Shown: positions 21,673 to 63,567 of the stretch, in pieces
Layout: each line of letters opens with the position of its first letter
Position numbering within the stretch: the first letter of the stretch is position 1
From: Octopus vulgaris
Taxonomy: Eukaryota
Assembly: GCA_951406725.2 (NCBI GenBank)
Contig: OX597817.1
Span: forward strand, 55,552,001-55,616,000
Direction: 5' to 3'
Length of the DNA: 64,000 nucleotides
Notes under the pieces: generated by a model
What the model was told of the DNA's origin: nothing
The model's input: the letters and a program-made list of their open reading frames with translations, nothing else
Database searches by the model: none
Translations under genes and position numbers: made by a program

Positions 21673-21698
21673 ACATATATATATATATATAATATATA
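21433..21698 (+). repeat. About 130-bp local tandem duplication
   Basis: TCTCTCATGCACACTTGACTGTATGCATCTCT...ACCGAAGTATA occurs at about 21434 and 21565. Confidence 0.9.
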
Positions 21699-22386
21699 AT
21701 TTGCGGGTCATTCTTGCTTTGGGGCAATGCGAATCTTTTCTGTATCGTTATTTTAGAAGATATACTGCCGTAGCTAGTATATATGTATGTGTATGTATAT
21801 ATGTGTGTATGAATGTATGTATGTATGTTAACATATATGCATGTATATATATTTATGCGTGTGAGTATATGCGTGCGTGTTTGCGTGTGTGGATGTCTGT
21901 GTATGTATTTGTGTAGGTGTGTGTGTGTGTGTGTGTGTGTGTGAGTGTGTGTGTGTGTGTGATTGTGCATATAGTATAGACAGAAACATTGAAAGTGAGA
22001 GACACAGAAAGCATTAAGAAAAACACAACGGTAATGCACTAAAAAACGTTTGGAATTTTTCACGCAAATCTGTCACACCTCACACATATTTTCTCATAAC
22101 CACATCATTTTTCATGCTCTGTGTTTGTTTTTGTCTTAAACGCTTGCTCAGACTCTGCAATCTCCTCTGATGTCCATCTTTAACAACTTCACAGACAGCA
22201 GAGGGGTAAATAAGGACACTACGAAATAACAACAACTTAATCGATATATTGATTCCTGATATACCAGCTTCTGTTGTTTTGTTGTGCGAATGCGAGTCAT
22301 GCAGTGCTTATGATTAGAAGAAATTTGAGTTCTACATTAATTCTATACACCTTGTTATCTGGTTATATATCCGATATTTTCAAATT

Positions 22387-40905: not shown

Positions 40906-41824
40906 AGCAATATAATTCTCTAAAAGAGATATATATGCACATATATATACTTACATATATATGTACACACACACATACATACACACACACACATGGTTTC
41001 AAGGTGTATTGCCTACTCATATATTCTCACTCTATATATATATATATATATAAAAGAGATATAGACAGTAACTGCTCGATAACATAAGGGACTAAAGCCA
41101 TCTGAATATGGCTAGGGACAGGGCAGGGTGGTGGGGGTGTTACTGTTGCATTTAGCTCCAGGCGAACATCGACGTTACCAGAAAGGCCCGACACCGTCAC
41201 GGTGTCCTTTAACCTGCAAAGGGAGGTAATTCCCCGATGAAGCGGAAACCACACACGGACCATGGTTTCAAGGTGTATTGCTTTCAAGGTGTGTGATTTC
41301 CGCTTCATCGGGGAATTACCTCCCTTTGCAGGTTAAAGGACACCGTGACGGTGTCGGGCCTTTCTGGTGACGTCGATGTTCGCCTGGGGCTAAATGCAAC
41401 AGTAACACCCCCACCACCCTGCCCTGTCCCTAGCCATATTCAGATGGCTTTAGTCCCTTATGTTATCGAGCAGTTACTGTCTATATCTCTTTTAGAGAAT
41501 TATTATTGCTTTCGAACAGATTTTCGAAATCAGCAAATGTATTTTGCTTGAAAATCTATATATGAATATACTGCAGAGTGAGAATTCGTCGAGGAAGCGG
41601 AAGCCTACCACACGCCGACGATAGGCAATACACCTTGAAACCATGGTCCGTGTGTGGTTTCCGCTTCATCGGGGAATTACCTCCCTTTGTAGGTTAAAGG
41701 ACACCGTGACGGTGTCGGGCCTTTCTGGTGACGTCGATGTTCGCCTGGGGCTAAATGCAACAATAACACCCCCACCACCCTGCCCTGTCCCTAGCCATAT
41801 TCAGATGGCTTTAGTCCCTTATGT

Positions 41825-41827
<3 letters not shown>
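40906..41827 (+). mobile_element. Retrozyme / Penelope-pLTR-like element: 361-nt monomer, about 1.5 direct copies plus inverted copy and fragments
   Basis: 41289-41466 repeats at 41650-41827 (offset 361). 41051-41256 is the reverse complement of 41289-41494. Contains a hammerhead and sits in (TA)n. No coding capacity recognised. Confidence 0.8.
41594..41667 (+). ncRNA. Minimal type I hammerhead ribozyme (U4C core variant)
   Basis: Stem I CACACG 41609-14 / CGTGTG 41649-54, extended by GAAGCGGAA / TTCCGCTTC. Core CCGACGA 41615-21. Stem II AGG-CAATACA-CCT with U.U closing pair. GAAA 41637-40. Stem III C-CATG-G. GTC cleavage triplet 41646-48. Confidence 0.8.
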
Positions 41828-41862
<35 letters not shown>

Positions 41863-42199
41863 CATATATATGCACATATATATACTTACATATATATGTA
41901 CACACACACATACATACACACACACACACACGCACTCATATATATATATATATATACACATATATATATATGTGTGTGTGTGCATGCTCATAGTCAGAAG
42001 TACATATATGGAGATAGAAATTACACAAACACACACACACACACGCGCGCACGCATGCAAGTGCATGCATTCACTCACAGCACACCTATAAACAAATCAA
42101 GCAAACATACAAACAGAAATATTCCAGCAAAATCTTTTTTAAAACAAAAACGCAGCATAGGAAGAATTGAAATTCCAAATAATACGAAAGAAAAACAAG

Positions 42200-62903: not shown

Positions 62904-62936
62904 TTATATATATACTTTGATACTTTGATACTTTGA

Positions 62937-63567
<631 letters not shown>

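Follow-up and report, generated by a model that had tools for sequence, protein, structure and literature searches.

Alignment of copies from one genome indicates that a retrozyme family of Octopus vulgaris carries a nested, covarying RNA domain that is real beyond chance. Because the insertion ends of these elements fall at two fixed sites in or just behind the fold, we read the domain as an element for reverse transcriptase (RT) binding and initiation, namely a handle bound by a Penelope (probably Neptune-clade) RT to start internal copying at two sites, and would give this reading a probability of about 0.68. The element class and its tail are already known, but searches of the literature, subscription papers and Repbase/Dfam entries aside, returned no description of a covarying fold at the two ends or of the strict rule by which the ends are paired.

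The retrozyme unit and its relatives

The window (the whole 64,000-nt stretch of DNA analysed) contains a monomer of the retrozyme family F1 on the forward strand, running from hammerhead site to hammerhead site (41289–41648) and delimited by a direct repeat (41289–41466 and 41650–41827, spacing 361) and by the tandem spacing of the F1 unit, which is 360 nt in 56 cases. The minimal type I hammerhead (41608–41657, +) comprises a core at 41615–41621, stem II, GAAA, and a palindromic stem III, with cleavage predicted after 41648; its core was counted 111 times in the fetched loci, overlapping fetches included. Across eight core types, the hammerhead-to-hammerhead spacing of tandem units is 353–364 nt. 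A DNA search of the genome with F1 returned 877 candidates, with 196 matches from the 40 scored and 99% identity among the top copies, which occur as dispersed tandem arrays. The 360-nt unit has no long ORF, and no contiguous RT or endonuclease (EN) was found at the retrozyme loci. The remainder of the F1 monomer (41289–41338 with 41570–41607) folds as a long rod closing the circle (monomer z-score −3.9), and comparable long-range pairing is visible in families F4 and F5. We also noted that position 4 of the hammerhead is C, not U, in young F1 (41615–41621) and in one autonomous Penelope-like element (PLE) family (L280, L281, and L286).

Judged by its sequence, the element is a non-LTR retrozyme with Penelope-like insertion anatomy. 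The typical insertion is two-armed, the 5′ ends meeting centrally and the 3′ ends pointing outward into (TA)n. In the window, the insertion is more complex: a second, partial copy (41649–41827, +) ends at site A (defined below) into (TA)n, an inverted arm (41051–41281, −) ends into (TA)n at an atypical position equivalent to 41494, and a short fragment with a site-B end (40906–40933, −; BLAST match to 41482–41510) forms the outermost left end. Inside the left end of the insertion, between this site-B fragment and a hammerhead fragment, lies a ~66-nt duplicate (40929–40994) of the right flank (~41864–41929), which suggests template switching onto the target DNA or two successive insertions.

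Approximately 11 related retrozyme families, F1 included, were found in this genome. The additional families F4, F5a/b/c, F6, F8, F9, F12, and F13 came from hammerhead patterns and DNA searches, the pattern scans giving 595 hits with a control of 0 and 511 hits with a control of 14, and all further families have the same domain downstream of the hammerhead. Other hammerhead-bearing repeats (L213–L215) end ~50 nt past the ribozyme and lack the domain. F2 is an older family (1377 candidates, ~90% identical), of which the window holds a decayed copy (63000–63305, −) with the same domain (covariance model (CM) hits of 66.8 and 20.2 bits), split at site A by a (TA)n run. The strings on which the earlier note built its model are present as given (41386–94, 41449–57, 41400–06, and 41473–79), with their 63-kb counterparts on the − strand. 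The hammerhead that it ascribed to the 63-kb element is not there: this F2 copy is 5′-truncated and has lost its own hammerhead, which sits upstream of the domain in other F2 copies, and the stretch at 62925–62997 is a separate 75-bp dispersed element without the CUGANGA core. The latter element has two small hairpins, ends in (TATCAAAG)n, is flanked by TA runs, and has 133 candidates, many 100% identical and at times in inverted pairs (L094). A repeat at ~63315–63530, which we take to be a common SINE-like one, adjoins the truncated 5′ end of the F2 copy.

The F1 unit also occurs, at 95–99% identity, in sequencing runs that bear five organism labels. None of these runs is recorded as RNA, although 14 may be; the 361-nt loop-back joint in their contigs is also expected from tandem DNA, and contigs do not resolve strand, ends, or circles. 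A metagenome pattern scan yielded 50 loci, the best CM score of which (20.1 bits; E 0.014 after pattern selection) was treated as chance.

The nested fold and the crossing helix

The fold was assessed in an alignment of 16 real copies (A1) and in an extended set of 18 family rows, which adds the held-out families F12 and F13 (majority of 20 copies each); all rows come from one genome with shared ancestry, and the covariation counts ignore kinship. Run on A1, RNAalifold gave a structure of 25 pairs, of which 14 vary on both sides (its covariation term is −4.1 kcal/mol); it recovers the helices H1, H2, P2, P2b, and P3. The first of these, hairpin H1 (41339–41355, +), is paired in 93/96 cells with two-sided changes in 2/6 columns. 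It is followed by the long hairpin H2 (41357–41391, +), whose lower stem (41357–60/41388–91) keeps 4/4 pairs in 18/18 rows and whose upper stem (41366–70/41380–84) is paired in 74/80 cells, with 4/5 columns two-sided. Helix P2 (41399–406 with 41473–80, +) closes the core domain (41399–41480) and carries two-sided changes; in A1, 5/6 of its pairs change on both sides, and partners slid by 1–3 columns are only 32–48% paired, the structure string used in this test containing the crossing helix discussed below. Hairpin P3 (41433–41448, +) is nearly invariant in the 16 training rows. Behind the core, hairpin H4 (TCTC/GAGA; 41486–41498, +) is 89% paired with zero two-sided changes; it is conserved, not proven by covariation.

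Together, H1, both stems of H2, P2, and P3 (the nested set) show pairing in 455 of the 468 cells (97%) over the 18 rows in structure-anchored registers, and 26 alternative states keep pairing, 17 of them two-sided, while 8 break it; the best-register choice inflates this score and that of the crossing helix alike. When the structure proposed in the earlier note is imposed on A1, H1 is 96.9%, P2 94.8%, P3 88.8%, H4 89.1%, and the crossing helix 56.9% paired, the F2 rows lying one column out of register in this scoring. The held-out families add new two-sided changes, in H2 lower, P2, and P3 for F13 (where the P3 base turns from G-C into A-U) and in P2 for F12. Some runs carry the F1 unit under the labels of three other organisms; there, substitution at 41357 replaces a G.U pair in the lower stem of H2 by A-U, and substitution at 41340 leaves H1 paired, as G.U. 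For the window's own copy, nested thermodynamics do not favour P2 and H2: the probability of P2 is 0.001–0.03, and the conserved fold lies 5.0 kcal/mol above the minimum free energy, level with a fold containing the crossing helix. The probability of P2 is at least 0.59 in 12/16 rows.

Of the conserved, pseudoknotted motif that the earlier note had described, the nested structure stands (RNAalifold and the covariation of P2), but the crossing helix is not conserved. A 'conserved GAGCW' reported alongside it is missing from F4–F6 and F13. The crossing helix itself, GGGGCTAAA with TTTAGTCCC, is complete in 5/18 rows (56.9% paired in the MAFFT register of A1) and is incomplete in most because its 5′ strand pairs upstream, within the H2 lower stem, in 18/18 rows, a pairing that the earlier note did not contain. 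Even in its best register, it is paired in 99/126 cells, with seven states keeping and six breaking the pairing over the 18 rows. Being broken in 13/18 rows, it was rejected as a conserved HDV-like pseudoknot. Two further candidate interactions were also set aside. The GCUAA strand pairs favourably with the P3 loop only in F4, F5c, and F6, so this interaction is not conserved, and a helix of the linker with the AU tail, bringing sites A and B together, is better than shuffles only in F1 (4/300) and F13 (13/300).

We considered whether the crossing helix is one state of a switch, in which the GGGGCUA strand would leave the upstream hairpin for the crossing helix or the P3 loop; the telomerase-like pseudoknot so formed would expose site A. 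The helix is complete in F1, F8a, and F2, reaches 4 bp in F13, and shows two two-sided states; its register scores 89/112, ranking at the top of 98 offsets (mean 73 ± 8), and in F4, F5c, and F6, the P3 loop offers the strand an alternative partner (−4.3 to −6.6 kcal/mol). However, unrelated offsets reach 86, the register was chosen from F1, and besides the 13 broken rows, the duplex energy is ~0 in F4, F5, F6, F9, and F12. With six states breaking and seven keeping the helix, compared to 8 and 26 for the nested set, we regard the switch as improbable.

Insertion ends, their pairing, and the putative role of the domain

The linker between P3 and P2 (41449–41472, +) holds end site A at 41466, the putative first RT start site, and the AU tail behind H4 (41499–41510, +) ends at site B (41510), the putative second, so that site A to site B delimits a 44-nt 'tail' in F1. 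The linker is 23–24 nt long in 18/18 rows while its sequence drifts, and site A stays ~7–11 nt before the P2 3′ strand despite this change. A regex search found 253 arms, of which 9 were unassigned and 10 were references; the 234 left comprise 56 that run into the next unit and 178 that terminate. With site A defined as 8–24 nt and site B as 52–82 nt after P3 (windows set post hoc and spanning 48 of ~110 offsets), the terminating arms, from 10 family groups, end at site A in 73 cases, at site B in 94, and elsewhere in 11 (167/178 at A or B). Among the F1 ends, 18/37 lie exactly at 41466 and 11/37 exactly at 41510. A and B are homologous sites across families, and the ends mostly run into (TA)n, with 2–5 nt of TA microhomology to the target.

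The pairing of these ends is strict. Two-armed insertions (n = 42) comprised 36 with one A and one B end, 0 AA, 0 BB, and 6 with an odd end, an A+B excess with p = 1.5e-11 against independent 50:50 choice. The F4 and F12 loci came from queries spanning site B; among loci found by hammerhead pattern, and hence without end bias (L148–L218), 16/17 were A+B. The window's own insertion was scored as odd+A, yet its site-B fragment (40906–40933) is the outermost left end.

Covariation of the nested helices and the mapping of insertion ends to fixed sites of the domain support one suggestion of the earlier note, that the RNA has a further functional domain, for instance one recognised by an RT. In PMC11167929, a PLE RT starts inside its RNA at two sites in vitro, the interval between them being the genomic tail; the PLE protein cuts and extends both target strands, with a dimer predicted, and a nearby RNA binding motif is hypothesised, narrowed to 172 nt of one element. 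Based on published retrozyme and PLE work, retrozyme arrays would be transcribed, cut by the hammerhead, and circularised, and a PLE RT/GIY-YIG protein would bind the domain and make a double-strand cut in a (TA)n tract. Priming from the resulting DNA ends would then take place at A and at B, aided by the 2–5 nt of UA microhomology; rolling-circle copying would generate tandem arms, and the two cDNAs would join at their far ends, producing the head-to-head inversion. From the strict A+B rule, we infer that a single asymmetric and probably dimeric complex primes both break ends, perhaps from the same RNA circle. A stronger form of this idea, which we put forward tentatively and would not bet on, is a telomerase-RNA-like initiation domain, in which a folded circular RNA gives a dimeric RT two start sites, so that a single complex primes the two (TA)n break ends, A always serving one and B the other; if true, one mechanism would explain the PLE tail, the head-to-head inversion, and the tandem arrays.

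The genome contains candidate partners for such an RT handle. A search for GIY-YIG returned 6136 candidates, of which 150 were scored; the candidates include uninterrupted 781-aa RT+EN frames bearing a CxxC knuckle, which we take to be Neptune-like. The RT+GIY-YIG elements here possess hammerheads and have (TA)n at their ends; in one family, two ends lie ~31 nt apart. One young family of this kind (L111–L114; G000:C16, C17, and C9) has an intact 781-aa frame, an upstream frame of 330–380 aa, tandem TGACGTC/CCAAT-like repeats past the ORF, a U3-A8 hammerhead ~70 nt from the 3′ end, and (TA)n targets. Against the RT-handle reading, the autonomous families sampled lack the domain fold at their AT-rich ends. 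The domain model R1, applied to 54 GIY-YIG loci (30+4+20, partly overlapping), matched two retrozyme copies in the neighbourhood and nothing in the terminal repeats of the loci themselves, and tblastn of five PLE proteins against 210 retrozyme loci found no contiguous partner.

An alternative places the fold in a single-stranded cDNA or integration intermediate, where the endonuclease would cut at A and B, resolving rolling-circle products, so that the ends are cut sites. The tail has been attributed to EN-mediated resolution (PMC8557442), recognition by the D. virilis EN is reported to depend on the tail (PMC11167929), and a staggered cut would likewise give one A and one B end. However, where the nested helices depart from Watson–Crick pairing, they mostly form G.U when read on the + (RNA) strand, in agreement with the earlier note; on the cDNA, these pairs would be A.C. 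In addition, the in vitro mapping of PMC11167929 puts RT starts at the tail ends. We therefore think this alternative unlikely.

A second ribozyme or ligase of a new type acting on the retrozyme RNA is, in our judgement, very unlikely. Its attraction is that Rfam offers no match to the domain and that P3, H4, and a UGGRGYUA stretch contain invariant nucleotides. At the gathering threshold, the sole Rfam match in the window was U6, away from the domain, and none of the 36 matches at E ≤ 10 overlapped 41339–41500. (The U6 snRNA-like copy, at 21677–21780 on the − strand with 57.8 bits, runs into (TA)n and is probably a retrocopy.) However, the invariant positions lie mostly within helices, and the HDV catalytic signature is absent, as the earlier note had already observed: CNAA or a catalytic C before the P2 3′ strand occurs in 0/16 rows, and no P1.1 was seen by eye. 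The new ribozyme that it had entertained is not supported, and the tandem units repeat from hammerhead to hammerhead. The genomic ends, moreover, are joined to target DNA and are not alike in the two arms, consistent with priming, and circularisation is ascribed to protein ligases in PMC7229834. An IRES, also raised earlier, would have no ORF to serve in the window, where only low-complexity frames occur. Least credible of all is that the fold does no more than stabilise the circular RNA or serve as a promoter, with the ends reflecting AU-rich microhomology to (TA)n: the 2–5 nt of TA microhomology fits, but other AU-rich stretches of the monomer are unused, microhomology alone cannot yield 36 A+B with 0 AA/BB, and site A keeps its place ~7–11 nt ahead of the P2 3′ strand even where the linker differs in sequence.

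The RT-handle reading addresses the open question of how PLE RTs, the sister group of telomerase RT, choose their RNA and internal start sites. Approximately 11 natural families now offer a fold backed by covariation, precise candidates for the start sites, and a strict rule for how the ends pair, in a 180-nt RNA open to mutational tests, and retrozyme spread would be tied to the PLE machinery via a mechanistic signature, beyond co-occurrence.

Comparison with known systems

HDV-like ribozymes combine a P1 crossing P2, a P1.1, and a J4/2 catalytic C followed by NAA before P2. The same outer strand topology can be drawn here in F1 alone; unlike in these ribozymes, ~26 nt separate P2 from P3, and there is no conserved crossing helix, P1.1, or catalytic C/CNAA. 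In the telomerase RNA template domain and the 3′ stem-loops of stringent LINEs, a structured RNA recruits a related RT. The domain described here would likewise bring in such an RT and offer it an unpaired stretch whose length is fixed. The present data, however, show neither a conserved pseudoknot nor a triple helix in it; the RNA is copied in its entirety, and from two putative start sites.

The elements resemble the metazoan non-LTR retrozymes (PMC7229834; bioRxiv 10.64898/2026.07.22.740005) in their tandem units (~300–390 nt) with a type I hammerhead each and no ORF, their dispersed arrays, and their co-occurrence with PLEs. Mobilisation of retrozymes by PLEs is proposed there without a mechanism, and the available text of the two papers, supplement folds aside, mentions no second conserved RNA domain, fixed 3′ ends, or two-armed insertions.

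The closest parallels are with the pLTR/tail of PLEs. Minimal and U3-A8 hammerheads are described in PMC4209133, and a tail at one end only with a (TA)n preference in PMC8557442; together with PMC11167929, these sources share with the present elements the minimal hammerhead, palindromic stem III, U3-A8 core variant, inverted 5′-truncated arm, two alternative 3′ ends, one-sided tail, and (TA)n targets. The inverted 5′-truncated arm with a one-sided tail, as in PLE-mobilised elements, is seen here in 36/42 two-armed insertions. The tail is 44–62 nt here, compared to the published 30–40, and the ends here are U/A-rich with target microhomology, whereas the anole element starts in an AC-rich stem-loop without homology. 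Unlike the PLE tail as described in these sources, the two sites here lie within a predicted five-helix covarying fold, and their A+B pairing is strict.
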